Made by a program: the position numbers and the translations under genes. A DNA stretch of 64,000 bases, from contig JAHBXL010000014.1 of NCBI GenBank assembly GCA_019636495.1, positions 54,061-118,060 of the forward strand, read 5' to 3'. Position 1 is the first letter of the stretch, and each line of letters starts with the position of its first letter. Shown here in pieces: positions 16,663-31,501 of the stretch. The stretch comes from Phycisphaeraceae bacterium (GTDB taxonomy: Bacteria; Planctomycetota; Phycisphaerae; Phycisphaerales; UBA1924). The notes below the pieces were generated by a model. That model was not told the DNA's origin. It made no database searches and worked only from the letters and a program-made list of their open reading frames with translations.

Positions 16663-19600
16663 TCACGGGCACCCGGCAAACCACGCGCTGAGGAACGCGA
16701 AGATGTCGGGGACCGCGAGCACGCCGTTGTTGTCGAAATCGGCACGCGGTTCATAGGCAAACCATGCCGCGAGGAACGCGAAGATGTCCGGCACCCCGAC
16801 GACGCCGTCGCCATCGAAGTCGGCCGGGCACGGCGGGGCGATCTGCACGAGGTTGCCCGGCACGTCCACGACACCGTGGTTGATGAGCGTGTTGTAGTAC
16901 ACTTTGCACGCGGGGTTGATGAGCCGGCTCCCCGCGTGGATGCGCAGCGTGTCGACGTACACCGCCTCGCACGCGCCCTGCCCGAGGTTGTCATTGTCGT
17001 GCTGATCGACCAGCCGGACGATCGTCGGCGCAGGGCCGATGACCAGTTGGCCGAGCGGGTACTGCCCCGCGACCGCGCTGTCCAGGCCGCTCGCGACCGG
17101 GCCCATGTCGCGCGACATCACCTCCAGCGTGCGCTCCCCGCCGGGGCCTTCCATGCGCAGCGTCGCCGCGGCGAGGTTGAACCGCGTATGGCTGTTGATG
17201 GCGCAATCGAAGTTCCCGCCGACGAGCACCGCCGCGTCGTCCGCGGTCATCCGCAGGTCGGCATCGGGCCCGATGATCAGGTTCCCACTGACTTCAACTG
17301 CCGGCGGCCCGCCCAGGCACCCCGAGCACACCGGGCCGATGATGGTCCCGTTGTTCACCAGCGTGCCGAAGATGTACAGCGTGCCCGAGCGGATGGTCGT
17401 CGTCGCGCCCGATTCGTTGCGGTAGTCGCCGAACTGCGCTGTCGAGCCGAAGATGTTGACCGCGCTGCGGTTCCAGAACAGCGGCGCGGCCAGGCCACCC
17501 CCCGACATGTTGAACGTGTCGAGGTTGACGAACGGCCCATCGGCGATCATCGACGAGTTGGACAGGAACGTGGTCGGGGCGATCACCGTCGCGCCGCTCC
17601 CGCCGATCAGGTTCAACGCCGCGCCCTGCTCGACGCGCACCGGCCCGTCGAAGCAGACCTCCGCCGCGTTGATCGTCAGCGACGAGTTGATTCGCGCTGT
17701 GAGTGTCCCGCGGGAGCCGAGGCTGAACATCTCCCCGATCAGATCGACCGATGACCCCGCCGAGGAGCGCACCTGCCCGAAGATGTCCAGCGACTGACCC
17801 GGGGCCGCGGCGAGGAACGAAGAGCCCCCCAGCGTCAGGATCGAGGTCGAGGGCGTCCGCAGGTCGCCCGTGGAGTTCAGGCCCAGCGAACGGCCCAGCG
17901 TGTCCAGCGATCCGATATCCGCCCAGGCCTGCTGCGTCGCGGTGATCTGATGCCCGCTCTGCGCCCCGAGCAGCGCCGCGGCCAGCGAGGCGTGCGCCGT
18001 GCCAAGCGAGTTGTTCGCGGCAAACGCAAGGCCGTCGCGCGGCACTTCAAACAGCCGTACGGAGCCTTGATTGCTGTTGGACCCCACATCATCCAAGTAC
18101 GCTCCTGCAAACACGGTCCCTTCAGCGGCGGCGAGCGACCATGCCAACTGATCCTGTGCCGCGGCATCGGCGACCACCAGTTTGCCCTGCTCGGTCCAGG
18201 TCGTACCGTTGCGCGAGAACACGTAGACGAGCCCGCGATTGCTGAGGGTGCTCTCCGTGTCGTTCAAAGCCCCGATGTACGCCCGGTCACCATCCAGCGC
18301 GACAGACCGTCCAAAGAAGCCGTTGACCCTGGCATCCGGCGCGACCAACTGTGCCTGCTCAACCCAACCTCCGGATGTACGTTCGAAGACATAGACCAAC
18401 CCCACGTTCAACAATCCCTGCATGCTCTTGCCGGGCGCTCCCACCAGGACAGTCGTGCCTTGAAGAGCAACCGAGAAAGCAAAGTTGTCATCTTGTCCAG
18501 GAACTCCGGTTCCGATGCGGCCATCGGATTCCCAACCGCCGAACTGGCCCGGGACAAGGGCATACACCTCTCCGTTCGAACCAGTGAACTGAGGCACGGT
18601 GACCACGACCACTCGATTCGCTGAGGCAATGATGCGGCCGCCGTACCCATACCCAAAGCAGTCGCCGCAATCGAATGGGCCGAACGAGGCTTGGCTCCAG
18701 GTCGAACCCGAACGGGTGTAACGGAACGCAAGCCCGCGAGCGAAAGCGTCCCCAACTGTCCGGCCCGGTGCACCGATGAACGCAATGCTCTCCGAAACCA
18801 GAGCCACGGCGCTCCCGAACCGCTGGCTTGCCTGCAAACCCACGCCTGTCGAAGTCGTCAGTTTGGCCTGCTGCGTCCATGTGGCGCTGGAGCGGACGAA
18901 AACATACGCCGCGCCCGTGTCTGTAAACGCATCCACGTCGTGATTCGGCGCTCCGACAACGATCGTGTCGCCCTTGATGGCCACGGCCGCGCCAAACCTA
19001 TCCGACGCCGCGCCATCGGCCGCCGTGAGTTTGGCCTGCTGCACCCACGACAGCCCGGACCGCACGAACACATACGCTGCGCCACGATCCAGGTCGCCGC
19101 CGACATCGCTGCGTGGCGATCCGACAACAATGGTGTCCCCATCGATGGCCACCACGGTTCCGAACTCGTCATTCGCCGCCCCATCCGATGCCAGCAGCAT
19201 CAGATCCGGTCCGATCCACTTCGTCCCCAGCCGCGAGAACACCCACGCCGAGCCCTGATCGGTGTTCCCTTCGACATCATCGAAGGGCGCGCCGCCCACG
19301 GCCGTATCGCCCCACAGCGCGACCGCCGCGCCGAACTGGTCCATCGCAGTCCCATCGGGCGCGGCGAGTCGGGCCTGCTGCATCCACGCCGCGCCGCTCC
19401 GCGCGAAGATGTACATCGCGCCGCGGTTCGAAGCGCCGTCGATCGTCTCCAGCCATGCCCCCGCGGCCAGCGTGTCGCCGTGCAATGCCACGGAATGGCC
19501 CAGGTTGGCGTTGGCCGTCCCGGGCGATGCCGTGACCTTGGCCTGCGGATTCCACGCCGCGCCCGTCCGCACATACACGTAGACCGAGCCCTGGTTCGCG

Positions 19601-22455
19601 TTCGCGCCGATGTCGCCGCCCGGCGCGCCGACGGCGAGCGTGTCGCCCCAGATGCTCACCGATTGGCCGAAAAGGTCCGCGGCCGCGCCATCGAATGCCG
19701 TGAGGTGCGCCTGCTGCGACCACGATGAGCCGTTGCGGGCAAAGACATGGACCGAGCCCCGGTCGGTTGCTGCGCCCACATCGTCCAGCGCCGCTCCCAC
19801 CACCGCCCAATCGCCCCAGACCGCGACGGCGTTGCCGAACCGATCATCCTCCGCACCGGCCGCGGCCTCCAACTTCGCCTGCTGGCTCCACGATGTGCCC
19901 GTGCGCGTGAACACGTACGCCGCGCCCTGGTCGCTGTTGCCGCCGATGTCGGCCAGCAGCGCGCCCACCACCACCGTGTCCGCCCAGATCGACACCGCGC
20001 GCCCGAAGGCATCCTGCGCAGCGCCATCCTCGGCGATGACCCTGGCCTGCTGCGTCCAGGTCGTGCCCATGCGCGTGAAGATGTACGCCGAGCCGTGGTT
20101 GTTCACACCGCCGGTATCGTCCCCCGGCGCGCCGACAACGATGGTGTCCCCATCAATGGCCACCGATGAGCCGAAGTTGTCGTCCGCGGCACCATCGGCC
20201 GCGGTCAACACGGCCTCGTGCACCCAGCCCGACCCGGTCCATCGGTACACGTGGGCCGAGCCCTGGTTGGCATTGGCGCCGACATCATCTCCATCAGAGC
20301 CCACCACCAGCGTGTCGCCATCGATCGCCACCGCGCCACCGTAGCGGTCGTTCGCAGCGCCCGAGGGCGGCCCGAGTTGAACGGGCGTGCTCCGCGGCGA
20401 GGTAAAGGACTCGACCGTGATCTCCGGACCCGGTGGCGGCGGCTCGGCCGGCAAGGCCACGCGGCGGATACGGTTGACGCCAAGCCCCGCATCCGAGATG
20501 TACACCGCGCCATCGGGGCCGACGCCCACGCCGCCGAGTTGGGTGAAGGTCGCATCGAGCGCGGGCCCGCCATCGCCGGTGTTGCCGATTGCGCCGGTAC
20601 CGGCAAAGAAGGAGATCTCGCCGAGCGCGAGGTCAGCGCGCCACACGCGATGCGCGCCACCGATGAGCAGACGGCCCTGACCATCGACCGCGACATCGAC
20701 GGCGAAACCGAGATTCGCCGTGTTCGGCGACCCGCTCGCACCGCTCCCGCCGCCCCCGCCGGCGACGATCGACCAGGTGGAAGTGGCGGTGTTGTAGCGG
20801 TGGATGCGCGAGTTTCCAGTACGGTCGAGTACATACACATTCTCGGCCGCATCGACCGCGACTCGGCGCGGATCGATAAACACGTCCGACAGCGATGTGA
20901 TGATCCCGGTGACAGCATCGACGCGGCGGAGGGCGAAATTGCTCGTGTCGGCAATATAGATATCGCCATCGGGCGCGACAGCGACACCTTCCGGGACCGC
21001 CAATCGTGCAGAAGTCGCCGGACCGCCATCGCCCGTGTAGCCGATCAACCCGTTGCCCGCAACGGTCGTGATGATGCCGGTGTTGCGGTCAATGCGGCGG
21101 ATGCGGTGGTTGGAGGCGTCGCAGAAGAACACATTGCCAGCGCTGTCAACGGCGATTCCGAGCGAGGCAGCAATCTGTGCCGCGGTGCCCGGCCCGCCAT
21201 CGCCGGAGTATCCCAATGAGCCCGTGCCCGCGATGGTTGTGATAATGCCCGTCGCGGCATCCACACGGCGAATGCGGAAATGGGTGTTGTCGACGATGAA
21301 CACATTGCCGCTCGCATCGACCGCGACGCCCTGTGGCGCTGCGAGTTGCGCTGCCGACGCTGGCCCGCCATCGCCCAGACTCGCGCCACCGCCCGCGAAG
21401 GCGTTGATGATCAGAGGGGGCGGCGGCGGCGGTGGCGGCGCCACGCGTCGGATGCGGTTGACGCCAAGCCCCGAATCCGAGATGTACACCGCGCCATCGG
21501 GTCCGCTCCCGACACCCCCGAGCAGCACAAAGGTCGCATCGAGCGCTGGTCCGCCATCGCCATCATCCCCCTCCGCGCCGGTTCCGGCAAAGAAGGAAAT
21601 CTCGTCGAGCGCGAGGTCGGCGCGCCACACGCGCCGAGTACCGGCAATGAGCAAGCGGCCCTGGCCATCCACAGCGATGTCGCGGGCGACACCGAGATTC
21701 GCCGTGTTCGGCGACCCGCTCGCACCGCTCCCGCCGCCCCCGCCGGCGACGATCGACCAGGTGGAAGTGGCGGTGCTGTAGCGGTGGATGCGCGAAGAAC
21801 TGCTGCGGTCCATCACGTAGACGTTCTCGGCCGCATCGACCGCGACTCGGCGCGGATCGAGAAAAACGTCAGACAGCGATGTGATGATCCCGGTGACGGC
21901 ATCGACGCGGCGGAGGGCGAAGTTCTGCGTATCGGCGATGTAGATATCCCCATCCGGCGCGATGGCGACACCTTGAGGAAGTGCAAGCCGCGCGGAAGTC
22001 GCCGGACCGCCATCGCCCGTGTAGCCGAACAGGCCGTTGCCCGCAACGGTCGTGATGATGCCGGTGTTGCGGTCAATGCGGCGGATGCGGTTGTTGGAGA
22101 AGTCGCAAAAGTAGACATTCCCCACGCCATCGACGGCGATGCCGATCGTTCCCGAGATCATGGCCGCCGTCCCCGGTCCGCCATCGCCGGAGTATCCGAA
22201 TGTTCCCGTTCCCGCGATGGTGGTGATGATGCCCGTCGCGCCATCCACACGGCGAATGCGGAAGTGGGTGTTGTCGGCGATGAACACATTGCCGCTCGCA
22301 TCGACCGCGACGCCTTGTGGCGCTGCGAGTTGCGCTGCCGAAGCCGGCCCGCCATCGCCCAGACTCGCGCCACCGCCCGCGAAGGCGTTGATGGTCTGTG
22401 CACAAGCCATCGACCCACACAGCAGAACCGCTGCCGCGAACATCGACTTCAACAT
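16663..22455 (-). CDS. giant secreted multidomain protein: 2x NHL-repeat modules, about 14 FG-GAP-like repeats, beta-helix-like region, C-terminal dockerin-like DIFAFL..WFA module
   Basis: Signal peptide MLKSMFAAAVLLCGSMACAQ. NHL-like units (GVAVDASGNVFIADNTHFRIRRVD). About 14 repeats of D.FG.SVAI.GDT.VVGA. The C-terminus is CPADFDGDGVVGVPDIFAFLAAWFAYEPRADFDNNGVLAVPDIFAFLSAWFAGCP. Confidence 0.85.
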   Translation of the reverse strand: MLKSMFAAAVLLCGSMACAQTINAFAGGGASLGDGGPASAAQLAAPQGVAVDASGNVFIADNTHFRIRRVDGATGIITTIAGTGTFGYSGDGGPGTAAMISGTIGIAVDGVGNVYFCDFSNNRIRRIDRNTGIITTVAGNGLFGYTGDGGPATSARLALPQGVAIAPDGDIYIADTQNFALRRVDAVTGIITSLSDVFLDPRRVAVDAAENVYVMDRSSSSRIHRYSTATSTWSIVAGGGGGSGASGSPNTANLGVARDIAVDGQGRLLIAGTRRVWRADLALDEISFFAGTGAEGDDGDGGPALDATFVLLGGVGSGPDGAVYISDSGLGVNRIRRVAPPPPPPPPLIINAFAGGGASLGDGGPASAAQLAAPQGVAVDASGNVFIVDNTHFRIRRVDAATGIITTIAGTGSLGYSGDGGPGTAAQIAASLGIAVDSAGNVFFCDASNHRIRRIDRNTGIITTVAGNGLIGYTGDGGPATSARLAVPEGVAVAPDGDIYIADTSNFALRRVDAVTGIITSLSDVFIDPRRVAVDAAENVYVLDRTGNSRIHRYNTATSTWSIVAGGGGGSGASGSPNTANLGFAVDVAVDGQGRLLIGGAHRVWRADLALGEISFFAGTGAIGNTGDGGPALDATFTQLGGVGVGPDGAVYISDAGLGVNRIRRVALPAEPPPPGPEITVESFTSPRSTPVQLGPPSGAANDRYGGAVAIDGDTLVVGSDGDDVGANANQGSAHVYRWTGSGWVHEAVLTAADGAADDNFGSSVAIDGDTIVVGAPGDDTGGVNNHGSAYIFTRMGTTWTQQARVIAEDGAAQDAFGRAVSIWADTVVVGALLADIGGNSDQGAAYVFTRTGTSWSQQAKLEAAAGAEDDRFGNAVAVWGDWAVVGAALDDVGAATDRGSVHVFARNGSSWSQQAHLTAFDGAAADLFGQSVSIWGDTLAVGAPGGDIGANANQGSVYVYVRTGAAWNPQAKVTASPGTANANLGHSVALHGDTLAAGAWLETIDGASNRGAMYIFARSGAAWMQQARLAAPDGTAMDQFGAAVALWGDTAVGGAPFDDVEGNTDQGSAWVFSRLGTKWIGPDLMLLASDGAANDEFGTVVAIDGDTIVVGSPRSDVGGDLDRGAAYVFVRSGLSWVQQAKLTAADGAASDRFGAAVAIKGDTIVVGAPNHDVDAFTDTGAAYVFVRSSATWTQQAKLTTSTGVGLQASQRFGSAVALVSESIAFIGAPGRTVGDAFARGLAFRYTRSGSTWSQASFGPFDCGDCFGYGYGGRIIASANRVVVVTVPQFTGSNGEVYALVPGQFGGWESDGRIGTGVPGQDDNFAFSVALQGTTVLVGAPGKSMQGLLNVGLVYVFERTSGGWVEQAQLVAPDARVNGFFGRSVALDGDRAYIGALNDTESTLSNRGLVYVFSRNGTTWTEQGKLVVADAAAQDQLAWSLAAAEGTVFAGAYLDDVGSNSNQGSVRLFEVPRDGLAFAANNSLGTAHASLAAALLGAQSGHQITATQQAWADIGSLDTLGRSLGLNSTGDLRTPSTSILTLGGSSFLAAAPGQSLDIFGQVRSSAGSSVDLIGEMFSLGSRGTLTARINSSLTINAAEVCFDGPVRVEQGAALNLIGGSGATVIAPTTFLSNSSMIADGPFVNLDTFNMSGGGLAAPLFWNRSAVNIFGSTAQFGDYRNESGATTTIRSGTLYIFGTLVNNGTIIGPVCSGCLGGPPAVEVSGNLIIGPDADLRMTADDAAVLVGGNFDCAINSHTRFNLAAATLRMEGPGGERTLEVMSRDMGPVASGLDSAVAGQYPLGQLVIGPAPTIVRLVDQHDNDNLGQGACEAVYVDTLRIHAGSRLINPACKVYYNTLINHGVVDVPGNLVQIAPPCPADFDGDGVVGVPDIFAFLAAWFAYEPRADFDNNGVLAVPDIFAFLSAWFAGCP
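20455..22392 (-). repeat. tandem duplication, 2 x approximately 984 bp (328 codons), inside the giant gene
   Basis: aa 22-339 and aa 350-667 are near-identical (INAFAGGGASLGDGGPASAAQLAAPQGVAVDASGNVFI... through GVNRIRRVA), separated by a Pro8 linker. Confidence 0.85.
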
Positions 22456-22604
22456 GATGCACGCCCTTTCGCTTCCGATCTGCCCCGTGCCGCCGCCATC
22501 GCGGACCCCGAGAGACCCCGGACCTTGACCGCAACGCCGTATGGACTACCCCCGCCGCGGCGGCGATTGGACAGGTGCCCGAGAAATTTCCGCGGATTTC
22601 TTTT

Positions 22605-22690
22605 GCCCCCAGCCCTCCTCCCCGTCCTCCGCCCCCCCCCTCGCCCCCCTTCCACCCACCCCGCCTCCCGGCCACCCCCCGCCGCCCCTG
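22605..22690. repeat. C-rich (G-rich on minus strand) low-complexity tract with a C9 homopolymer
   Basis: ccccagccctcctccccgtcctccgccccccccctcgccccccttccacccaccccgcctcccggccaccccccgccgcccc. C9 run at 22632-22640. Lies 150-235 nt upstream of the giant gene start on its coding strand. Confidence 0.8.
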
Positions 22691-22819
22691 AACCGGCAGG
22701 GACAAGCAGACCGAGCGCGCACTCTGAGCCTCAGCGGCCACTCAAGCCACATACTGGCAGAGACTTCCGCCGCGAACCGGAACTTGATCCCCCGCCTCTC
22801 CCCCCCAACCCGCCGCCTC

Positions 22820-22860
22820 AAAAAGCACAAACCCCCGCGACTCAATCGACTTCGCAGGGG
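22820..22860 (-). terminator. rho-independent-like terminator (minus strand), probably the original tRNA-Phe terminator displaced by the insertion
   Basis: CCCCGCGA (22833-22840) and TCGCAGGGG (22852-22860) form a stem with one bulge. On the minus strand it is followed by TTTGTGCTTTTT (rc of 22820-22831). It lies 35 nt beyond the orphan tRNA 3' copy. Confidence 0.45.
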
Positions 22861-22894
22861 CGTTCAAGGATTCCGGCCGAAGCGGCGAGACAAG

Positions 22895-22918
22895 CAATGG
22901 GCAGGGCCGGACTTGAAC
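22895..22918. repeat. att direct repeat, left copy (orphan 3' end of tRNA-Phe)
   Basis: CAATGGGCAGGGCCGGACTTGAAC is identical to 31165-31188. Confidence 0.8.
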
Positions 22919-23141
22919 ACCCCCGGGAATCGCCGGGAAACAAGGGTGTTTCACTTTCAAGCGGCGCAAAATGCGGCGCACTTGGCGGCGATTCTGCCCC
23001 AACACCGACCCCGGCGACGCCCACCGATCCCGAGTTGGCGGCGGTGGTCGCGGCATGGCCGACGATCCCCCCGGCGGTGCGGGCGGCCATCGTGGCGATG
23101 GCGAAGGCGAGCGGCCCGGCCAAGGGCGGGAGGGGCGAGCG

Positions 23142-23489
23142 ATGACCGGTACACCGTCACCAAACGGATCGAACGGCCACCCGCCAACGTTCGGCCGCGA
23201 TGGACGCGGGCGGTTCGCAGAGGGCAATCGCGGCGGGCCGGGCAATCCGCACGCCCGGCGGACGGCCGAACTCCGGGCCGCGATGCTGGGGGCGGTATCC
23301 GCCGACGATGTACGCGACGTGATCCGCGCTCTGGTGGAGCGTGCGCGCACGGGCGACACGGCCGCGGCGCGTGAACTGCTAGACCGCACGCTGGGCAAGG
23401 CGGGCGACGCCGCGGACCTGCTGGCGCGGCTTGACGAACTCGAATCGAGGATCGCGGGTACGGGCAGTTTCGGGGAGGCTTTCCAATGA
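23142..23489 (+). CDS. small element protein, DUF5681-like (GRFAEGNRGGPGNP motif)
   Basis: ATG at 23142. GRDGRGRFAEGNRGGPGNPHARR followed by a helical region (ALVERARTGDTAAARELLDR) resembles small phage/plasmid DUF5681 proteins, from memory. Confidence 0.5.
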   Translation: MTGTPSPNGSNGHPPTFGRDGRGRFAEGNRGGPGNPHARRTAELRAAMLGAVSADDVRDVIRALVERARTGDTAAARELLDRTLGKAGDAADLLARLDELESRIAGTGSFGEAFQ

Positions 23490-23710
23490 CAGACGCCAAA
23501 GAACGAATCCGCCGGCTGGAACTCGCCACGTCGCGTCGGCGCGGGCCGGCGTGCGCGGTCAACGTCGCGGCCCTTCAGACCTTGGCGGCGGACCCTGCCA
23601 CGTGGGCGCGGTTCGCGGCCCTCTCGGACAGACTCGGCAAGGGCGAGCGCGTCCGGGATCAAGAGTGGCGCGAACTCGCGGAACTCGCCGAGCGGAAGGC
23701 GGACCGATGA
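23486..23710 (+). CDS. hypothetical element protein (74 aa)
   Basis: The ORF start overlaps the upstream stop (ATGA at 23486-23489). No recognisable domain. Confidence 0.45.
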   Translation: MTDAKERIRRLELATSRRRGPACAVNVAALQTLAADPATWARFAALSDRLGKGERVRDQEWRELAELAERKADR

Positions 23711-23964
23711 CCGCGCCACGGAATCGGCTGCTGAGGCTGGAGCGTGCGATCATCCGCCACGGTCGCGTTTGTCCGGCGTGCGCTGCGGCCACGCTGACCG
23801 CGACGCCCCCGCCGGTTGTACGGCGCATCCGTGATCCGGTCCCTGCCAGCGCGCCACCCACGCCCTGCGCGGCGTGCGGCGCGGTGCCGGTGGTGGTGCG
23901 GATTCTCCCGCCACGTTCTGCGCGGGCGTGGGTAGACTGGGCGGCAAACGGGCATCGGGATTGA
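23707..23964 (+). CDS. hypothetical element protein with two CxxC pairs (zinc-ribbon-like)
   Basis: ATG at 23707 overlaps the upstream stop (ATGA). CPAC ... CAAC spaced about 40 aa apart. Confidence 0.45.
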   Translation: MTAPRNRLLRLERAIIRHGRVCPACAAATLTATPPPVVRRIRDPVPASAPPTPCAACGAVPVVVRILPPRSARAWVDWAANGHRD

Positions 23965-24052
23965 TCCCCCGATGAACGGATCGGGCTGGGGTCTTTGGCG
24001 CTCACTCGCCCCAAGACCCCGCCCGACCGGCCCGAGAAAGGCGAGTGAACCA

Positions 24053-25882
24053 ATGGCACGGAAGCCCACGCCGGCGAAGGCGAAGAAACCGAAGGCATCG
24101 CCCCCGACGCCGGTCCCGGCGACGACGACCGATCATGCGATCGCGGGAGCCGGTCCCGGTGATCCTGTCTCTGACGCCCTGACCCGCCACGAAGCGCAGA
24201 GGAAAGCGGACGAAGCGAAACTACTCGCCGATCCGGTGTTCCGTGCTGCTGCTGAACACGGCAAGCGATGGGAGTTGGCACAACGCGCGGCGGCGGACGC
24301 GGCCGCGCCGTTCCGGGCGGAAGTGGACAAACTGATCGCGGATCATCCGCACGGGTACGCGCCCGAGTCGGAGACGGCACGGCGCTTCGACGCGCTCAAG
24401 TGGGCGATTCAAGACGCGGAAACGAAGGCATACGCGGCGCATGGTTTCCAGCAAACGACGGCCCCCAAGTCGCCCGCTGACCTGCTGGCACGGTTGAAGC
24501 GGGTCGAACTCAACTGGTGGTTTGACCTGCAAGAAACCGCAAACCTGCCCCGCCCGAGTGAACTTCTCTGGCAGGATGCGGAAGGGCTGCGGAAGCGCGA
24601 TCCCTTTCTCCCCGAGTTGCCCGCTAAGCCCGACGCGGGGAGAGAGCGGTACGCGGCCCTTATCCGCTGGTGCGAAGATTGCGCGCGTGCTCGCAACGAA
24701 AGCCCCGCCGATCAAGCATTCGGCGCGGCCCGCGCGTTCGTTGAATACCTGGCGATGGTGGCGCAACGCGCCCGCGAGTATCGCCCAAGCCCCGACAAAC
24801 CCGACGCATGGCAAGACGTGGCGTTCAACTTCGCCGAAGCGTTCATCGCGTGGTTTGACCTGACGCACCTGCTGACGCCGGCGGTTTGCACCGAAGCCCG
24901 GCGGGTGTATCCGCCCGGCGCGGCGTCGATCAAGTTGCGAGCGAGCAACGAAACGGCCCCGGTTGTACCGGCCATGCCGGCGAGCGTGGTAAACGGGTTG
25001 GCGGTGTATCGACGGGTGACGCTGGGCGCGACGCCCTACCCCACGGTGATCGAAGCGGTGGCCGATGAGTTGGGGGTCTACTTCCGAAACGCGGTCTACA
25101 CCGGGCGGCGGCATCCTCTGGAACCCGACCTAGACCGATTGATCGGCGAAGCGAAGGCCCGCGCAACGGCGCGGCAAGTCGCCCAAGGCAAACCGGCGGA
25201 ACCGATGGGGTGGCGCGCGGACCTAGACGAACTGAGGGCGAAGGAAACCCGCGCGGTGGTGCGGGAACGGCTGGGGGTCAAGACCTACGGCGACGGTCAA
25301 GACCTGATGATGCGCGAATGGACCGGCCAAGACCGGGCGCGGGGTGAATCGGCGCTTTGGCTGCTGCGGTGCGATGGGATCAACTTCGCGGACCTGCGGA
25401 TGCAACTGGTGCGCGAAGCCGAAGCGGTGATCGCGTCGGCGAACAAGCCCCGCGCCCCGACAATCGACCCCGAACTACTGCAACGGCTGGAAGCCGGCAT
25501 CGCGGCGGTTCATTCCATCGGGAGCAACTTCGATGCTGGCATGGCGCGGGTCGGGCGCGTGATCGAATCCCTGGGCACACAGGATGACAACAACGGCGAC
25601 GCGAAGCCCCCGGCCCTGTCCGCTGGTGTGGAGGCGATCGACGAACACGACGCGGCGCTACTGGCGTTTCTCAATCGAAACCCAAGTCTGCGGCGCAAGG
25701 TTTCGGACGTGCTGCCCGACAAAGGACCACAAGACCGAAAGGCGGTAGCGAAGCGACTGCGGAAGTTGGCCGATCGAACGCCCCCGCTAGTGGACTACCC
25801 GAAGGATGGACGGTCGGGCGTGGTGATACTGCCCGCTGGGTCGGAAGCGTTGAAGCGAGCGACCGCGCCGACGCCCCGCTAA
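24053..25882 (+). CDS. 609-aa orphan element protein, Lys/Pro-rich N-terminus, helical body, C-terminal winged-helix-like segment
   Basis: ATG at 24053 (MARKPTPAKAKKPKASPP), in frame within ORF 23972..25882. No motif I recognise. The C-terminus (AALLAFLNRNPSLRRKVSDVL...AVAKRLRKLADRTPPLVDYPKDGRSGVVILPAG) looks wHTH-like. Confidence 0.65.
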   Translation: MARKPTPAKAKKPKASPPTPVPATTTDHAIAGAGPGDPVSDALTRHEAQRKADEAKLLADPVFRAAAEHGKRWELAQRAAADAAAPFRAEVDKLIADHPHGYAPESETARRFDALKWAIQDAETKAYAAHGFQQTTAPKSPADLLARLKRVELNWWFDLQETANLPRPSELLWQDAEGLRKRDPFLPELPAKPDAGRERYAALIRWCEDCARARNESPADQAFGAARAFVEYLAMVAQRAREYRPSPDKPDAWQDVAFNFAEAFIAWFDLTHLLTPAVCTEARRVYPPGAASIKLRASNETAPVVPAMPASVVNGLAVYRRVTLGATPYPTVIEAVADELGVYFRNAVYTGRRHPLEPDLDRLIGEAKARATARQVAQGKPAEPMGWRADLDELRAKETRAVVRERLGVKTYGDGQDLMMREWTGQDRARGESALWLLRCDGINFADLRMQLVREAEAVIASANKPRAPTIDPELLQRLEAGIAAVHSIGSNFDAGMARVGRVIESLGTQDDNNGDAKPPALSAGVEAIDEHDAALLAFLNRNPSLRRKVSDVLPDKGPQDRKAVAKRLRKLADRTPPLVDYPKDGRSGVVILPAGSEALKRATAPTPR

Positions 25883-25943
25883 TGCCCCCTTCCTGCCGCG
25901 CAGAATCCCCACGGTAGAAACGCCCACGCCCTTTCGTGTGGGC

Positions 25944-26159
25944 ATGATCGAAGAAAACAAGAAACCGTTGTACCTGGGAGCGATGGCCCGCCGGTTGCGC
26001 GTCCCCGCGACGTGGCTGCGGGCCGAAGCCGAAGCGGGACGAATCCCGCACCTGCGCGCGGGTAGTGCGCTGCTGTTCGATCCCGAAGTAGTGGAGCGGA
26101 TCGTTTTCGATCGGCTGCGCGAATCGTCCACGCCGGCGAAGGGGGTGTCGCGTGGCTGA
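25944..26159 (+). CDS. excisionase/MerR-type helix-turn-helix DNA-binding protein
   Basis: MIEENKKPLYLGAMARRLRVPATWLRAEAEAGRIPHLRAGSALLFDPEVV is typical of excisionase-family HTH proteins. Confidence 0.6.
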   Translation: MIEENKKPLYLGAMARRLRVPATWLRAEAEAGRIPHLRAGSALLFDPEVVERIVFDRLRESSTPAKGVSRG

Positions 26160-26367
26160 ACTCCCGAACATTCCGGGCGCGGCCCCGTTGGCGATGCGCC
26201 CGAAAGACGCGGCGAAGGCACTGGGCATCGGGCAACGCAAGTTGTGGGAACTCTCCCAACCACGCGGGCCGATCCCGTGCGTTCGCATCGGCTGTTGTGT
26301 GCTGTACCCCTACGCCCTGCTGCAAGCATGGCTGGCCGAGCAAGCGGCCAAGGGGGGCGAGCAATGA
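26152..26367 (+). CDS. AlpA/excisionase-like HTH protein
   Basis: MRPKDAAKALGIGQRKLWELSQPRGPIPCVRIGCCVLYPYALLQAWL. GTG at 26152 (8-nt overlap) or ATG at 26194. Confidence 0.55.
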   Translation: MAELPNIPGAAPLAMRPKDAAKALGIGQRKLWELSQPRGPIPCVRIGCCVLYPYALLQAWLAEQAAKGGEQ

Positions 26368-26789
26368 ACACGCCCCCAAGAAACGACGCGGCCCCGTCTG
26401 GCAACGGGGCGAGCGCCAATCGGTCGAACACTTCACCCGATTCTACGTTGGCCCGGCTGCCCCTGACCCCACCCGCGCGGCACAACGCGCCGGCGGGTAC
26501 GTCCGGCGTCGCGGCGGATCGGATCGCCGTCCACGCGAAAGACCTGCGCGCCCGCGTCCTGGCGTTCATCGTCGGCCAAGGCCCGCACGGCGCAACCGAC
26601 GACGAAGGGGAAGCGGCGCTGGGGATCAAGTGTCAGACGTACACGCCCCGGCGCGGTGAACTTGTCGCCCTGGGGCTGGTGGTCGATTCGGGACGCCGGC
26701 GGAACACGGTGAGCGGTCGCCCGGCGGCGGTGTGGGTGACGCCCAACCACGCCCCCCCCACGCCGAAGCCGGAAGGGGGTGCGGCATGA
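26364..26789 (+). CDS. hypothetical element protein with winged-helix-like C-terminal half
   Basis: ATGA overlap at 26364-26367. LRARVLAFIVGQGPHGATDDEGEAALGIKCQTYTPRRGELVALGLVVDSGRRR. Confidence 0.5.
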   Translation: MNTPPRNDAAPSGNGASANRSNTSPDSTLARLPLTPPARHNAPAGTSGVAADRIAVHAKDLRARVLAFIVGQGPHGATDDEGEAALGIKCQTYTPRRGELVALGLVVDSGRRRNTVSGRPAAVWVTPNHAPPTPKPEGGAA

Positions 26790-29302
26790 GCGGCCCCGTA
26801 GAACGAATCCTGACGGCCCTACGCGAACACGGACACGAACCCCGCAAGGCCGGCGCGGGCTGGTGCTGCAAGTGTCCGGCCCACGATGATCGGGACCCTT
26901 CCCTGTCGATCCGCGCCGGCGACGACGGGCGGGCGCTGGTGAACTGCCACGCCGGTTGTACCGTCGATGCGGTGTGCGGCGCGATCGGGCTGCGGGCGTC
27001 GGACCTGTTCGAGCCGGACCCGAGCCGGCGGAACGGACACGCGCCACGGACCCGCCAGAGTGTCACCGTCACCACAACCCCACGGAAGCCCGCACGAAAC
27101 GCGGGTATCGGTGACGGTGACGCCAAGACGTTCCCCACGGCCCGCGACGCGGTGGCCGAGTTGGAGCGGCGGCACGGCCCGCGATCGACGACCTGGACGT
27201 ACCACAACGCGGCAGGCGAGCCGGTGGGGCTGGTGGTGCGGTGGAACACGCCCACCGGGAAAGACGTGCGCCCGGTGTCGCGGAAGGCGGACGGATCGGG
27301 CTGGATCATCGGCGGGATGCCCACGCCCCGCCCGTTGTACGGGCTGCCCGACCTGCTGGCGACGCCGGCGGGATCGCGGGTGCACGTCACCGAAGGCGAG
27401 AAAGCGGCGGACGCGGCCCGCGCGGTCGGGCTGGTGGCGACGACAAGCCCGCACGGTTCCAAGTCGGCGGGCAAGGCGGATTGGTCCCCGGTGGCGGGGC
27501 GCGAAGTTGTGATCCTGCCCGACCATGACGACGCCGGCGAGCGGTACGCCGACGACGTGGCGCGGCTGGCGACGGCTGCGGGCGCGAAGTCGGTGCGGGT
27601 GGTGCGATTGGTTGAACTGTGGGCAGACCTGCCCGAAGGCGGCGATATGGCGGACCTGGTGGAGCATCGCGGCGGGGACGTGGACCCGATCCGCGCGGAA
27701 GTCGAAGCCCTGACGATCAACACCGAGCCGGAAGCGGTGACGCCCGACGCGCCGGCGGTCCCCGCGTTCGCGCCCTTCCCGGTGGACGTGCTGCCTGAGC
27801 CGATCCGGTCTTTCGTCGCGGACGCGGCGAAGGCGATCGGGTGCGATCCGTCCTACGTCGCCCTTCCCCTGCTGTCGGGGCTGGCATCGGCGATCGGCAA
27901 CACCCACCGGATCGCGCTGAAGCGCGGGTGGACCGAGCCGGCGATTGTGTGGACGGCGATCGTGGGGGAGTCGGGGACGATGAAAACACCCGCGTTCAAG
28001 TTGGCGATGAAGGCGATCCGCAAGGCGCAAGCCGATGCGTTCAAGGAACACGACGCGGCACGGGCCGAATGGGAAGCCCAACACCTGCGGTATGAAGCCG
28101 AGTTGACGGGGTGGAAGCGGGACGCGGCGAAGAAACGCGGCGGCGATGACGGGTACACCGTCGCCCCACCCGAGAAACCCACCCCGCCGATCGCGCGTCG
28201 GTACATCGTGTCCGACACCACAACCGAAGCCCTGGCCCCGATCCTGCTGGGCAACCCGCGCGGCGTGCTGCTGGCCCGCGATGAACTCGCCGGCTGGTTG
28301 GGATCGTTCGACCGCTACGCGAAGGCGGGGAAGGCGGGCGCGGACTCCGCGCATTGGCTGTCGATGCACAACGGCGAATCCATGACGATCGACCGCAAGA
28401 CCGGGATACCGCCGACGATCCACGTTCCATCGGCATCGGTGAGTATCACGGGCGGGATTCAACCCGGCATCCTGGGGCGGGCGCTGGGGCAGGAACACCA
28501 CGAAAGCGGCATGGCGGCGCGGGTGCTGTACGCGATGCCCCCGCGCAAGGCGAAGCGGTGGACCGAATCCGACGTGGACGCGGACACCGAAGCGGCGGTG
28601 GCGGCGGTGTTCGATCGGCTGTTCTCTCTCACGATGGAAGTCGATCCCGAAGGCCCGCTGCTGGAACCGGACTGTCGGCCCCGGCTGGTGCGGCTGGCCG
28701 ACGATGGGAAGGCGGCGTGGGTGCGGTTCTACAACGAACACGCGACCGAGCAAGCGGAACTGTCCGGCGACCTGTCGGCGGCGTGGTCGAAGTTGGAGGG
28801 GTACGCGGCCCGGCTTGCGCTGGTGGTTCACTTGACCCGCTGGGCGGCGGGTGACGCCACGCTACGCGATCCGGCGCGGGTCGATGAGGCGAGCATCGCG
28901 GCGGGCGTGGTGTTGGCCCGGTGGTTCGGCGACGAAGCCCGGCGCGTCTACGCGATCCTGTCCGAGAGTGACGACGACCGAGAAACCCGGCGGCTGGTGG
29001 AATGGATCGAACGCAAGGGCGGCACGGTGACGGCCCGCGACCTGACCCACGGGGTGCGGGCGTATCGCGGCGATCCTGACGCGGCGGAACGCGCCCTGTC
29101 GGCGCTGGTGGAAGCGGGCATCGGGTGTTGGGAAGCCGACGCCCACGGCCCGAAGGGTGGCCGACCCGCCCAACGATTCCGGCTTGTCTCCACCGTCACC
29201 GTCACCGAAACCCCCGCGAACGCCGGGAAAGACGTGGGTTATGGTGACGGTGACACCGGGGACACGGCCACGGACGCCGGCGACGGCTGGGGGGAACTGT
29301 GA
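26786..29302 (+). CDS. primase-helicase-like replication protein (CHC2-like Zn finger, Toprim, DUF3987-like C-terminal domain)
   Basis: ATGA overlap at 26786-26789. CKCPAHDDRDPSLSI...NCHAGC. Toprim-like VHVTEGEKAAD...VVILPDHDDAGERYA. DUF3987-like FPVDVLPEPIRSFVADAAKAIGCDPSYVALPLLSGLASAIG...IVGESGTMKTPA. Confidence 0.75.
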   Translation: MSGPVERILTALREHGHEPRKAGAGWCCKCPAHDDRDPSLSIRAGDDGRALVNCHAGCTVDAVCGAIGLRASDLFEPDPSRRNGHAPRTRQSVTVTTTPRKPARNAGIGDGDAKTFPTARDAVAELERRHGPRSTTWTYHNAAGEPVGLVVRWNTPTGKDVRPVSRKADGSGWIIGGMPTPRPLYGLPDLLATPAGSRVHVTEGEKAADAARAVGLVATTSPHGSKSAGKADWSPVAGREVVILPDHDDAGERYADDVARLATAAGAKSVRVVRLVELWADLPEGGDMADLVEHRGGDVDPIRAEVEALTINTEPEAVTPDAPAVPAFAPFPVDVLPEPIRSFVADAAKAIGCDPSYVALPLLSGLASAIGNTHRIALKRGWTEPAIVWTAIVGESGTMKTPAFKLAMKAIRKAQADAFKEHDAARAEWEAQHLRYEAELTGWKRDAAKKRGGDDGYTVAPPEKPTPPIARRYIVSDTTTEALAPILLGNPRGVLLARDELAGWLGSFDRYAKAGKAGADSAHWLSMHNGESMTIDRKTGIPPTIHVPSASVSITGGIQPGILGRALGQEHHESGMAARVLYAMPPRKAKRWTESDVDADTEAAVAAVFDRLFSLTMEVDPEGPLLEPDCRPRLVRLADDGKAAWVRFYNEHATEQAELSGDLSAAWSKLEGYAARLALVVHLTRWAAGDATLRDPARVDEASIAAGVVLARWFGDEARRVYAILSESDDDRETRRLVEWIERKGGTVTARDLTHGVRAYRGDPDAAERALSALVEAGIGCWEADAHGPKGGRPAQRFRLVSTVTVTETPANAGKDVGYGDGDTGDTATDAGDGWGEL

Positions 29303-29637
29303 ACCCGCACCCCCACGAACTCGCCCCGCTGCTGCTGGCCCTTGGACGGGCAGGGATCGAACTGGCCCCGCACCCGACCGACGCGGGCCGGCTGCGGCAT
29401 CGCCCGGCGAACCTGCCCCCCGAACTGTCGGCGCGGCTGCGGTTGCACCGGGCGGCGGTCCTGGGGCTGCTGCCCCCCCACGGCGGGTACGCCCCGGACG
29501 CCCACGCGGCGGACGGCAACGCGGCGTACGTCTACGGCGAACGGCTGGGCGTCGCGGACGGGCTGGGGCTGGCGACGCACCCCGGTTCGGCGGCGTGGCT
29601 GGTGGCGGTCGGGGAGTCGATGGGGGCGAGCCGATGA
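29299..29637 (+). CDS. hypothetical element protein with TubC_N-like docking motif
   Basis: GTGA overlap at 29299-29302. LLLALGRAGIELAPHPTDAGRLRHRPANLPPELSARLRLHRAAVLGLL resembles the TubC N-terminal docking-domain pattern, from memory. Confidence 0.45.
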   Translation: MNPHPHELAPLLLALGRAGIELAPHPTDAGRLRHRPANLPPELSARLRLHRAAVLGLLPPHGGYAPDAHAADGNAAYVYGERLGVADGLGLATHPGSAAWLVAVGESMGASR

Positions 29638-29885
29638 AACTTGCACAATGGGAAGTATTGGGGTACGATTGTGGCATGGCGACGGCGAGCGAAACCCTGC
29701 GGCGTGAGTTGGGGCGGTGCGGGCAGACCCGCTACGCAGTGAGCAAGGCGACGGGGATTCCTGAATCGGTACTATCGCGTTTCACCCACGGCCAACCGTT
29801 GCGCGGTGCAAACTTCGACAAGTTGGCGGACTACTTGGGGCTGGTGCTGACGGCGAAGGCGGGCAAGACCACGAAGGGACGGTGA
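29634..29885 (+). CDS. XRE-family HTH protein
   Basis: ATGA overlap at 29634-29637 (alternative ATG at 29676). LRRELGRCGQTRYAVSKATGIPESVLSRFTHGQPLRGANFDKLADYLGL. Confidence 0.55.
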   Translation: MKLAQWEVLGYDCGMATASETLRRELGRCGQTRYAVSKATGIPESVLSRFTHGQPLRGANFDKLADYLGLVLTAKAGKTTKGR

Positions 29886-29888
29886 CGT

Positions 29889-31229
29889 ATGGCGAGCGTT
29901 TCACGCGATGCGAATGGAACCCGGCGGGTGCTGTTCACCGACCGCGAAGGCGAGCGGAAGGCGGTGCGGCTGGGCAGGGTTTCGGCCAAGACCGCCGAAG
30001 CGTTCCGGCTGAAACTCCAAGACGTGATCGCGGCCCGGTTCACCGAAACCGCGATCGACGCGGAAACGGCCCGGTGGCTGGCGGACCTGCCCGACCGTAT
30101 GTATGCCCGGCTGGTGCGCGTTGGGCTGGCCGATCCCCGCGCCAGCGCGTCGCGGGTGACGCTGGGCGGGCTGCTGGCGGCTTTCTTCGCCGGCGTGGAC
30201 GTGAAGCCCGCAACGCGGGTGCGCATGAAGCAAGCCGAAACCGCGCTGGTGGACTACTTCACCGACGCCCGCGACGTGGCGACGATCGGCGAAGCCGACG
30301 CCGACGAATGGCGGGCGAGTCTCACGAAAGCGGGGTACGCGGCGGCGACGATCAGCCGGACGGTCCTGTACGCCCGGCAAGTGTTCCGCTGGGCGATGCG
30401 TCGGGGCATGGCGAGCGGCAACCCCTTCGCGGAGTTGAAGGCGGGGGCGCAAGTGAACCACGCCCGCGCGGTGTTCGTGTCGCGGGAGTCGATTGCCAAA
30501 GTGATCGACGCGGCCCCCGATGCCGAATGGCGGCTGTTGATTGCCCTGTCCCGGTTCGGCGGGCTGCGCGTTCCGAGTGAAGCCCTTGCCCTGCGGTGGT
30601 CGGACGTGGATTGGGAACACAACCGGCTGACGGTGCGAAGCCCCAAGACGGAACACCACGAAGGGAAGGGGGAGCGGATCATCCCGCTGTTCCCCGAGAT
30701 TCGGGAACACCTGCAAGCGGTGTTCGACGCGGCCCCGGTCGGATCGGTGAGCGTGATCGGGCGCTACCGAGAGGGCGCGAACCTGAATCCGCACTTCCGG
30801 CGGATCATCAAGCGGGCGGGGCTGACGCCCTGGGATCGGACGTGGCACAACCTGCGGGCGAGCCGGCAAACCGAACTGGCGGCGACGTTCCCGCTGCACA
30901 CCGTTTGCGCGTGGATCGGGAACACGAAGGCGATCGCGGCGGGGCACTACCTGCAAGTCACCGACGCCGATTGGACCCGCGCCACGGGTGCGGCTGGGGG
31001 CTGCGGAGAAAGCGGCGCAAAAGGCGGCGCACTTCCGACGCAAAATGCGGCGCGGCATCCGTCCGCACCGGATCGCGGGCGTTCGCGGGAATCGACGGAA
31101 GCGCCTTGTTTTGCTGGTGTTTCGCAACCGGACGCGGACGAACGCGAAGCGGTGCAAAACGATCCAATGGGCAGGGCCGGACTTGAACCGGCAACCCCCG
31201 CATTTTCAATGCGGTGCTCTACCAATTGA
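29889..31229 (+). CDS. tyrosine-type site-specific integrase
   Basis: Catalytic-domain pattern: LSRFGGLRVPSEALALRW (Arg), WHNLRASRQTEL (H-x-x-R), AWIGNTKAIAAGHYLQV (His, Tyr). The ORF runs about 90 codons past the catalytic Tyr, through the att core and 62 nt into the tRNA-Phe gene. That tail is low confidence. Confidence 0.85.
   Translation: MASVSRDANGTRRVLFTDREGERKAVRLGRVSAKTAEAFRLKLQDVIAARFTETAIDAETARWLADLPDRMYARLVRVGLADPRASASRVTLGGLLAAFFAGVDVKPATRVRMKQAETALVDYFTDARDVATIGEADADEWRASLTKAGYAAATISRTVLYARQVFRWAMRRGMASGNPFAELKAGAQVNHARAVFVSRESIAKVIDAAPDAEWRLLIALSRFGGLRVPSEALALRWSDVDWEHNRLTVRSPKTEHHEGKGERIIPLFPEIREHLQAVFDAAPVGSVSVIGRYREGANLNPHFRRIIKRAGLTPWDRTWHNLRASRQTELAATFPLHTVCAWIGNTKAIAAGHYLQVTDADWTRATGAAGGCGESGAKGGALPTQNAARHPSAPDRGRSRESTEAPCFAGVSQPDADEREAVQNDPMGRAGLEPATPAFSMRCSTN
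31165..31188. repeat. att direct repeat, right copy (within intact tRNA-Phe 3' end)
   Basis: Identical 24-mer to 22895-22918. It covers the last 21 nt of the tRNA plus 3 nt downstream. Confidence 0.8.
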
Positions 31230-31240
31230 GCTACCTACCC
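31168..31240 (-). tRNA. tRNA-Phe (anticodon GAA)
   Basis: The rc reads GGGTAGGTAGCTCAATTGGTAGAGCACCGCATTGAAAATGCGGGGGTTGCCGGTTCAAGTCCGGCCCTGCCCA. Cloverleaf with anticodon loop TTGAAAA. CCA not encoded. Confidence 0.9.
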
Positions 31241-31501
31241 GAACCGACAGGCCCTAAGCCTAACGGCTTCCATGCATCGGTCAAGCCCCCTCGCGGCTGA
31301 ACCCGCATCCGCTTCGATTCCCGCGTGGTTCGGCCGCGTGCCGCGCGGGCCTGGGCACGCTCAACGCCACGGGGCGTGCCGAGGCGCGGGGGGGCGCGGC
31401 CACCTATCGTTCCACGTTCGCGGCGAGAAACGCCGCCCGGCCCGCCGCGGCGGGTCCGGAAGCGCTTTCCATACAGACCGTTTTCCAGACGGAGCACACG
31501 C

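Follow-up and report, generated by a model that had tools for sequence, protein, structure and literature searches.

An integrase gene of Planctomycetota that appears to span its own attP and to encode two alternative C-termini

Our analysis makes it likely that the integrase gene of a planctomycete mobile element spans its own attachment site, attP, such that the free circle would produce a longer, hairpin-tailed enzyme and the tRNA-inserted element a shorter one, a switch resembling that between IntP and IntX of phage Mx8. The window analysed here is a stretch of 64,000 nt from Phycisphaeraceae bacterium (GCA_019636495.1, contig JAHBXL010000014.1, positions 54,061-118,060 of the forward strand), and all coordinates follow window numbering. 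Within it the 24-mer CAATGGGCAGGGCCGGACTTGAAC is present in exactly two copies, with 0 expected by chance, and the segment that these copies delimit (22895-31188) we identify as an integrated mobile element of ~8.3 kb (8.27 kb) in a tRNA-Phe gene. Its features are as follows.

22895-22918, plus strand: core copy at attL, the displaced 3' end of the original tRNA-Phe gene and an exact repeat of 31165-31188
22897-23145, plus strand: left-end tail ORF of 82 codons, which would supply the last 75 codons of the integrase in the excised circle
23142-23489, plus strand: DUF5681-like gene, the first downstream of the tail (Pfam DUF5681, E = 9e-4, below the curated cut-off; phrog_38011, E = 1e-5)
Within the element, plus strand: orphan open reading frame of 636 aa
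25938-26159 and 26152-26367, plus strand: two small excisionase-like HTH genes (PHROG excisionase families, E = 7e-3 and 9e-6; weak match to TIGR01764)
26732-29302, plus strand: primase/helicase with Toprim and DUF3987 (Pfam DUF3987, E = 8e-76; PHROG DNA helicase and primase families)
Within the element, plus strand: Cro/CI-like HTH gene (profile searches)
29889-31229, plus strand: tyrosine integrase, integrated form, 446 aa (Pfam Phage_integrase, PF00589; phrog_1, E = 5e-32)
31165-31188, plus strand: core copy at attR, within both the integrase ORF and the tRNA gene
31168-31240, minus strand: tRNA-Phe(gaa), the integration target (ARAGORN), whose 3' end is the right core copy

Every plausible gene between the core copies is encoded on the plus strand, Pfam and PHROG searches recognised none of them as a virion gene, and the element probably replicates on its own. 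HTH_17 genes take up the position of the two Xis-like genes in related circles, and the family to which the element belongs is common in Phycisphaerae and other Planctomycetota. A scan of 22400-31500 for promoters and terminators returned sites no more numerous than in shuffled sequence, and a search of 40 relatives for an empty attB with the left flank (22300-22894) yielded poly-C matches only. Two similar palindromic units of ~65 nt (GTCACCGTCACC...GGTGACGGTGAC) lie ~2.1 kb apart, the first (27057-27124) towards the 5' end of the primase-helicase ORF and the second (29185-29264) at its 3' end; we regard them as candidate iterons, origin or operator.

The integrase possesses the conserved Arg...His-x-x-Arg...Tyr catalytic domain of tyrosine recombinases: PF00589 matches residues 206-358 with 32.5 bits against a cut-off of 27.1, and the blocks GLR, HNLRAS and HYLQ are conserved in an alignment of 13 integrase sequences. 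The codon of the catalytic Tyr354 occupies 30948-30950, and the right core copy follows downstream of it inside the ORF, where it is read as MGRAGLE with the ATG at 31167 in the integrase frame. The integrated 446-aa protein ends in ..MGRAGLEPATPAFSMRCSTN, its final 13 codons after the core being antisense to tRNA-Phe. At the left end, the ATG at 22897 lies in a frame that ends at the TGA at 23143-23145, and this stop overlaps the ATG at 23142 as ATGA. When the attP junction is assembled in silico, the two halves join in one frame at the core and give a protein of 508 aa that continues HPRES...GGRGER for 75 codons, so that integration would swap a 75-residue tail for 13 tRNA-antisense residues. 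An earlier note on this DNA had claimed that the integrase ORF and the left-end ORF read the core in one frame, that a circle would extend the integrase by 75 codons and that the tail stop overlaps the next start; we confirm the shared frame to the base, and the extension and the overlap as well. The integrated copy keeps all catalytic residues and so, by its sequence, still encodes a complete recombinase, and the hairpin ORF appears stranded at the far end of the element beside host DNA, with neither an element gene nor a promoter upstream of it.

Taken by itself, the window provides weak evidence for such an arrangement, because most frames are open in DNA of ~67% G+C. The left-end frame is open from 21280, which gives a 621-aa ORF reaching to 23145, and one of the other frames of the junction has no stop at all while another has a single one. 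That 621-aa ORF (21280-23145, plus strand) is an artefact antisense to a gene for a 1930-aa exoprotein (16663-22455, minus strand). In addition, the GC3 of 30960-31166, just after the catalytic Tyr, is 0.58 versus 0.85 in the integrase body and hence not coding-like, and composition shuffles put the chance of one frame staying open over 155 codons at ~3%. The spurious ORF, the open second frame and the linker GC3 mean that the window alone would leave room for coincidence, that is, for a frame open merely because stops are rare at 67% G+C and for a tail that is no real coding sequence. What lifts the observation above chance is the relatives, with their natural fusions, their conserved frame and a tail motif under protein-level selection.

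We searched for fused forms with the 82-aa tail among longer proteins, obtaining proteins of 491-531 aa in a first round and a higher total in a second. At least 13 distinct metagenomic integrases of 491-554 aa, with 32-88% identity in the integrase body, end in the same tail, the fused set comprising P0002, P0004, P0006, P0007 and P0158-P0167. The contigs that carry fused integrases measure 3.4-14.7 kb, and four of them, of 7.8-14.7 kb, are circular, with terminal overlaps typical of assembled circles.

L102: terminal overlap of 141 nt, unit of 9176 bp
L105: terminal overlap of 77 nt
L107: terminal overlap of 101 nt
L019: terminal overlap of 30 nt

The contig L017, which carries the fused P0002, is the natural counterpart of our in-silico junction, with which it is colinear at 91-100% nucleotide identity and gapless across the core. 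By sequence, the element occurs both as circles and as tRNA insertions, the circle encoding the integrase together with the hairpin. P0007 and P0164 are 48% and 32% identical to P0002, P0164 bearing a large insertion, and both end in the same tail with the last 12 residues identical; a common tail on such different integrases suggests that tail/downstream and integrase modules have been exchanged between elements. The fused protein P0163 is an IS3-type transposase OrfA-like HTH protein (281 aa) that runs in frame into the tail motif, and it most likely arose by an insertion sequence landing beside a left-end tail ORF.

The genome of the window itself contains a second such element (G000 contig C22, L014:377-9853), 9.4 kb long and inserted in tRNA-Tyr with a 29-bp core, whose integrase is 47% identical, whose tail is in frame and overlaps the following gene as GTGA, and which has the same arm-repeat motif. 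Two integrase paralogues in this genome also read into tRNA genes, one at C1:134762-136061 (minus strand) into tRNA-Val in a different tRNA register and the other at C32:2122-3100 into tRNA-Glu; no second att copy was detected for either as an exact repeat of at least 12 nt, and they are probably remnants.

To gauge how regularly the frame is kept, we compared loci chosen in two ways. A tail-based sample comprised 80 loci found through the tail motif alone, 79 of them from Planctomycetota records, mostly Phycisphaerales, and the exception from a Gemmatimonadales MAG contig. Fourteen of these loci, the window and C22 included, could be resolved, and in 11 of the 14 integrase and tail are in frame across cores derived from Phe, Tyr, Val, Lys, Glu and Gly tRNAs, the in-frame cores crossing either the T-loop or the anticodon region. 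An integrase-based sample was chosen through the integrase body with the tail disregarded. At a threshold of E<=1e-30, homologues were detected in 111 of the 201 genomes that were sampled from the host's order. Among 29 loci from different genomes, 27 have an integrase ORF that continues into a tRNA gene, entering its 3' end in antisense (Val, Ile, Phe, Glu, Arg, Tyr, Leu or Lys), and none stops short of it. Scanning 16 kb of upstream DNA in this sample uncovered 11 second att copies: all seven elements with a detectable tail (Val, Ile, Phe, Glu) have it in frame, and the other four junction ORFs stay open over a further 46-80 codons, one including a divergent motif. Overall, integrase and tail are in frame in 18 of 21 resolvable elements, integrated or in attP form, with cores from seven tRNA types. 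The linker from the catalytic Tyr to the motif varies between 104 and 131 aa in the fused proteins and is always in frame, which implies that many indels have kept the frame. Together with the fused integrases and the circular contigs, this bears out the expectation that related elements keep an open frame across attP.

Stops or frame shifts between the core and the first gene, which would have spoken against the idea as first proposed, occur in a minority only, namely in the three relatives L050, L057 and L030. In L030 the frame breaks in the linker. L050 (3400-4100) and L057 (9500-10150) are attP-form junctions with a 46-nt tRNA-Lys core that reaches the anticodon loop; there the integrase stops at a TGA contributed by the anticodon loop, the motif lies in the -1 frame, and both have GGTGCGA ~11 codons upstream of the core, which could mark a separate (GTG) start or a frameshift.

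The last ~28 residues of the tail are its conserved part, DPELAAVVAAWP.LPPAIRAGIVAMV.

23026-23109, plus strand: conserved tail motif DPELAAVVAAWPTIPPAVRAAIVAMAKA, a predicted helical hairpin (codon-position entropy, AF2 and cluster matches)

Among 72 aligned homologues, the motif columns have an entropy near zero at codon positions 1 and 2 and a high one at position 3, a pattern that extends to columns beyond the peptide search pattern (P.LPPA.RAGIVAMV) and that we read as protein-level purifying selection. The motif matches 5550 representative clusters (E<=1e-3) and is more strongly conserved than the integrase body, in agreement with the suggestion of the earlier note that PELAAVVAAWP..AVRAAIVA is conserved at integrase C-termini. 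With an alignment of 109 sequences, AF2 places helices at tail residues 45-56 and 59-72 (pLDDT 88-96), a confidently predicted two-helix hairpin. In the AF2 model of the fused protein, residues 358-472 are disordered and docking of the hairpin on the enzyme is not confident (pTM 0.35). The tail family has no Pfam match, its 109 members giving chance-level matches only (E >= 0.02, at most 2 members each), and there was nothing similar to the tail in PHROGs, in NCBIfam or by Foldseek against the PDB. Searches of 50,697 phage records gave no close match to the integrase or to the tail; the tail finds only unnamed Planctomycetota clusters in the ESM Atlas and one match in IMG/VR. We also considered an antisense gene as the source of the conservation and rejected it: two of the antisense frames are interrupted by stops in one sequence out of four, and the boundaries of the third are inconsistent, since it can be open for as few as 2 codons ahead of the motif and for none past it.

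The DNA between the catalytic Tyr and the hairpin has a different character, which is apparent from repeats on both sides of the core.

22962-22979, plus strand: P' arm-type repeat CGGCGCAAAATGCGGCGC, one of three copies
31013-31030 and 31036-31053, plus strand: two P-arm repeats in the integrase linker (31017-31030 and 31040-31053 in a pattern search)

The sequence GCAAAAKGCGGCGC has three copies in the window, only beside the core, and the P-arm repeats are read in two frames, as SGAKGGA and TQNAAR. Of 8 attP junctions examined, 7 (L019 being the exception) have a comparable pair of repeats around the core, commonly ~196 nt apart and in different frames on its two sides, the version of other elements being GGCAGCAAATCCGGC. 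In the alignment of 72 homologues, entropy in the core and in the 'GGAKSGA' columns is equally low at all three codon positions, which argues for a DNA-level constraint on core and arm repeats. We interpret this stretch as attP, core plus arm repeats, constrained as DNA. The repeats are best read as putative arm-type integrase sites, a reading in keeping with the lambda-like fold predicted for the integrase, N-terminal beta domain included: in the AF2 model of P0002, a close fused homologue, residues 3-54 form three strands and a helix, and Foldseek ranks full-length lambda Int first among the matches to this model (1z1b_A, E = 6.5e-11). With a predicted N-terminal domain and putative arm repeats flanking the core, the integrase has the features of a lambda-type heterobivalent enzyme, and a complete arm-core-arm attP would be overprinted by an open reading frame.

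The tail also adjoins the next gene. The 4-nt ATGA overlap of the window recurs in the close relatives L017, L102, L104 and L105, and among 64 evaluable loci we counted 9 clean 4-nt overlaps, 12 longer overlaps, 25 gaps and 18 loci where no ORF of 80 aa or more follows. On sequence, candidate coupling of the tail to the next gene is common and not universal. The genes all run the same way round the circles, as the proposal of a closed circular chain of coupled ORFs requires, but several intergenic gaps, of 0.2-0.8 kb, remain, so that the chain is true in part only.

We propose that the integrase reading frame of the free element would pass the catalytic Tyr, traverse ~115 codons of attP (P-arm repeats, core and P' arm repeat) and end with the hairpin of ~28 residues. 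By analogy, the tethered hairpin would modulate the integrase, and as long as the element is free it may promote or permit attP x attB integration, or synapsis; loss of the tail would leave a less active or differently specific enzyme and so stabilise the integrated state, as we infer from Mx8. With every gene pointing in one direction, excision would also restore the read-through from integrase to tail and, in this element, on to the next gene. What the tail does to recombination is proposed by analogy, and a sensor of the integration state would have its precedents, in principle, in Mx8 and in the integration-dependent immunity of mycobacteriophages. A more specific version, which we hold only tentatively and at clearly lower confidence than the switch itself, treats the hairpin as a dedicated regulatory domain through which the physical state of the element would determine how efficiently, or in which direction, recombination runs: it would be present on the integrase only in the free circle and be parted from the gene by the same reaction that it governs, the attP DNA would double as a disordered protein linker, and the switch would be self-contained, family-wide in mobile elements of Planctomycetota and evolved independently of Mx8.

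The hairpin might instead be a small protein in its own right, encoded by the first gene that follows attP and translated from a start in or near the core, its continuity with the integrase being a tolerated by-product of packing in stop-poor DNA. Most of the best 150 profile matches are short (58-199 aa) and many begin exactly at the core Met; most database proteins with the motif are short ORFs called from the in-frame core ATG, so that the tail may also be made on its own. An in-frame ATG, GTG or TTG is present at the core in all 16 copies aligned that far, although this core ATG is the reverse complement of C72-A73-T, and T follows 46 of the 54 tRNA genes in the genome; as a by-product of tRNA gene ends, the core ATG is no evidence for a separate gene, and selection for an in-frame ATG at the core was rejected. 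P0160 and P0166, which use the other register, lack an in-frame start at the core, and the circular L107 has zero in-frame ATG, GTG or TTG codons in the 116 codons preceding the motif, back to the catalytic Tyr, so that the motif could be made there only as part of the integrase. A separate gene has most in its favour in L050 and L057, with integrase and motif in different frames and a possible GTG start upstream of the core, and it is also suggested by a tail that very different integrases have in common, that is more conserved than the integrase and that appears to shuffle separately. It does not account for tails in frame in 18 of 21 elements, where one third would be expected, in spite of variable linkers, nor for integrase ORFs that enter the tRNA in 27 of 29 cases and never stop before it. 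We consider a separate small protein unlikely, yet the most serious competitor of the two-isoform integrase.

A second alternative is that the tail acts as a C-terminal degradation tag, which would make the integrase of the free element unstable and the integrated form stable. The motif does end in ..LALVKAA or ..AMVKAA, reminiscent of Ala-rich tags, and there is a precedent for an attP within a gene at which integration removes a degron (PMC9262239). The motif is, however, never C-terminal, being followed by 3-78 variable residues (median 9), and the terminal dipeptides have no Ala-Ala bias; the tmRNA tag of the host is GNSNYALAA, and neither isoform ends in this way; and the conserved part is a predicted folded hairpin rather than an end sequence. 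Because the residues after the motif vary in length and ending and the host tag differs, we judge a degron very improbable. Coincidence, for which the frame open from 21280, the stop-free second junction frame and the non-coding-like GC3 of the linker could be cited, is scarcely credible and, as far as sequence comparison goes, refuted by variable third with fixed first and second codon positions in 72 homologues, by 5550 related clusters with a confidently predicted fold, and by a frame kept in 18 of 21 elements with no consistent antisense ORF; the relatives, the selection by codon position and the predicted fold likewise disfavour it as the alternative that the earlier note had allowed for.

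The two-isoform integrase has its closest counterpart in Mx8, where int contains attP and acquires a different 3' end on integration, which alters the properties of the integrase without inactivating it (PMC6070905; PMC4383910). As in Mx8, a tyrosine integrase has the attP core in the 3' part of its gene downstream of the catalytic residues, and insertion into a tRNA gene shortens the 3' end of int but leaves the enzyme intact; in the window the core lies inside int past the Tyr, and the C-terminal segment is replaced by host-encoded residues. The two differ in that Mx8 Int has no detectable sequence similarity to P0002 (BLASTP, E = 2), in the host, here Planctomycetota, in the nature of the element, here a primase-bearing circle of 7.8-14.7 kb with no virion gene recognised, and in what is lost, here a specific predicted hairpin of ~28 residues that is conserved over thousands of clusters and more than seven tRNA targets and joined through a linker consisting of attP arms and core. 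The suicidal integrases of the SSV type, from archaeal viruses and plasmids, also carry att inside the integrase gene, which their own integration cuts (PMC8371274). There the gene loses an essential portion through the split and no longer encodes a complete enzyme after integration, whereas in the window the catalytic residues, Tyr354 included, stay upstream of the core and the integrase remains complete. Cluster G, N and P mycobacteriophages have attP in the repressor gene, and integration removes an ssrA-like tag (PMC9262239); in both systems attP lies in a coding sequence over a tRNA-derived core and integration changes a C-terminus, but there the gene encodes a repressor with an ssrA-like tag and arm sites are absent, and here attP lies in int, outside any HTH gene, with no terminal tag and with arm-type repeats within the ORF. 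Like lambda Int and the integrases of Tn1549 and Tn916, the enzyme has a body fold with an N-terminal beta domain, two-sided arm-type repeats and small excisionase-like HTH partners; unlike lambda-type integrases, it has an extension of ~150 residues past the catalytic Tyr that is encoded across attP. Lambda Int, at 356 aa, ends ~14 residues after Tyr342. We found no paper on this integrase family in the literature.

We conclude that an IntP/IntX design like that of Mx8 probably operates in an unrelated integrase family across Planctomycetota, the effect of the isoforms being drawn by analogy. An attP within int with an exchanged C-terminus had rested mainly on one phage and would here be a conserved family trait, turning a single-phage curiosity into a widespread module whose motif is found in thousands of protein clusters across Planctomycetota. 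For annotation, it means that gene callers split one protein into an 'integrase' and an orphan 'hypothetical protein' of ~80 aa at opposite ends of the island. With natural circles and a defined 28-residue module at hand, the sensing of integration state through an integrase isoform has become directly testable.
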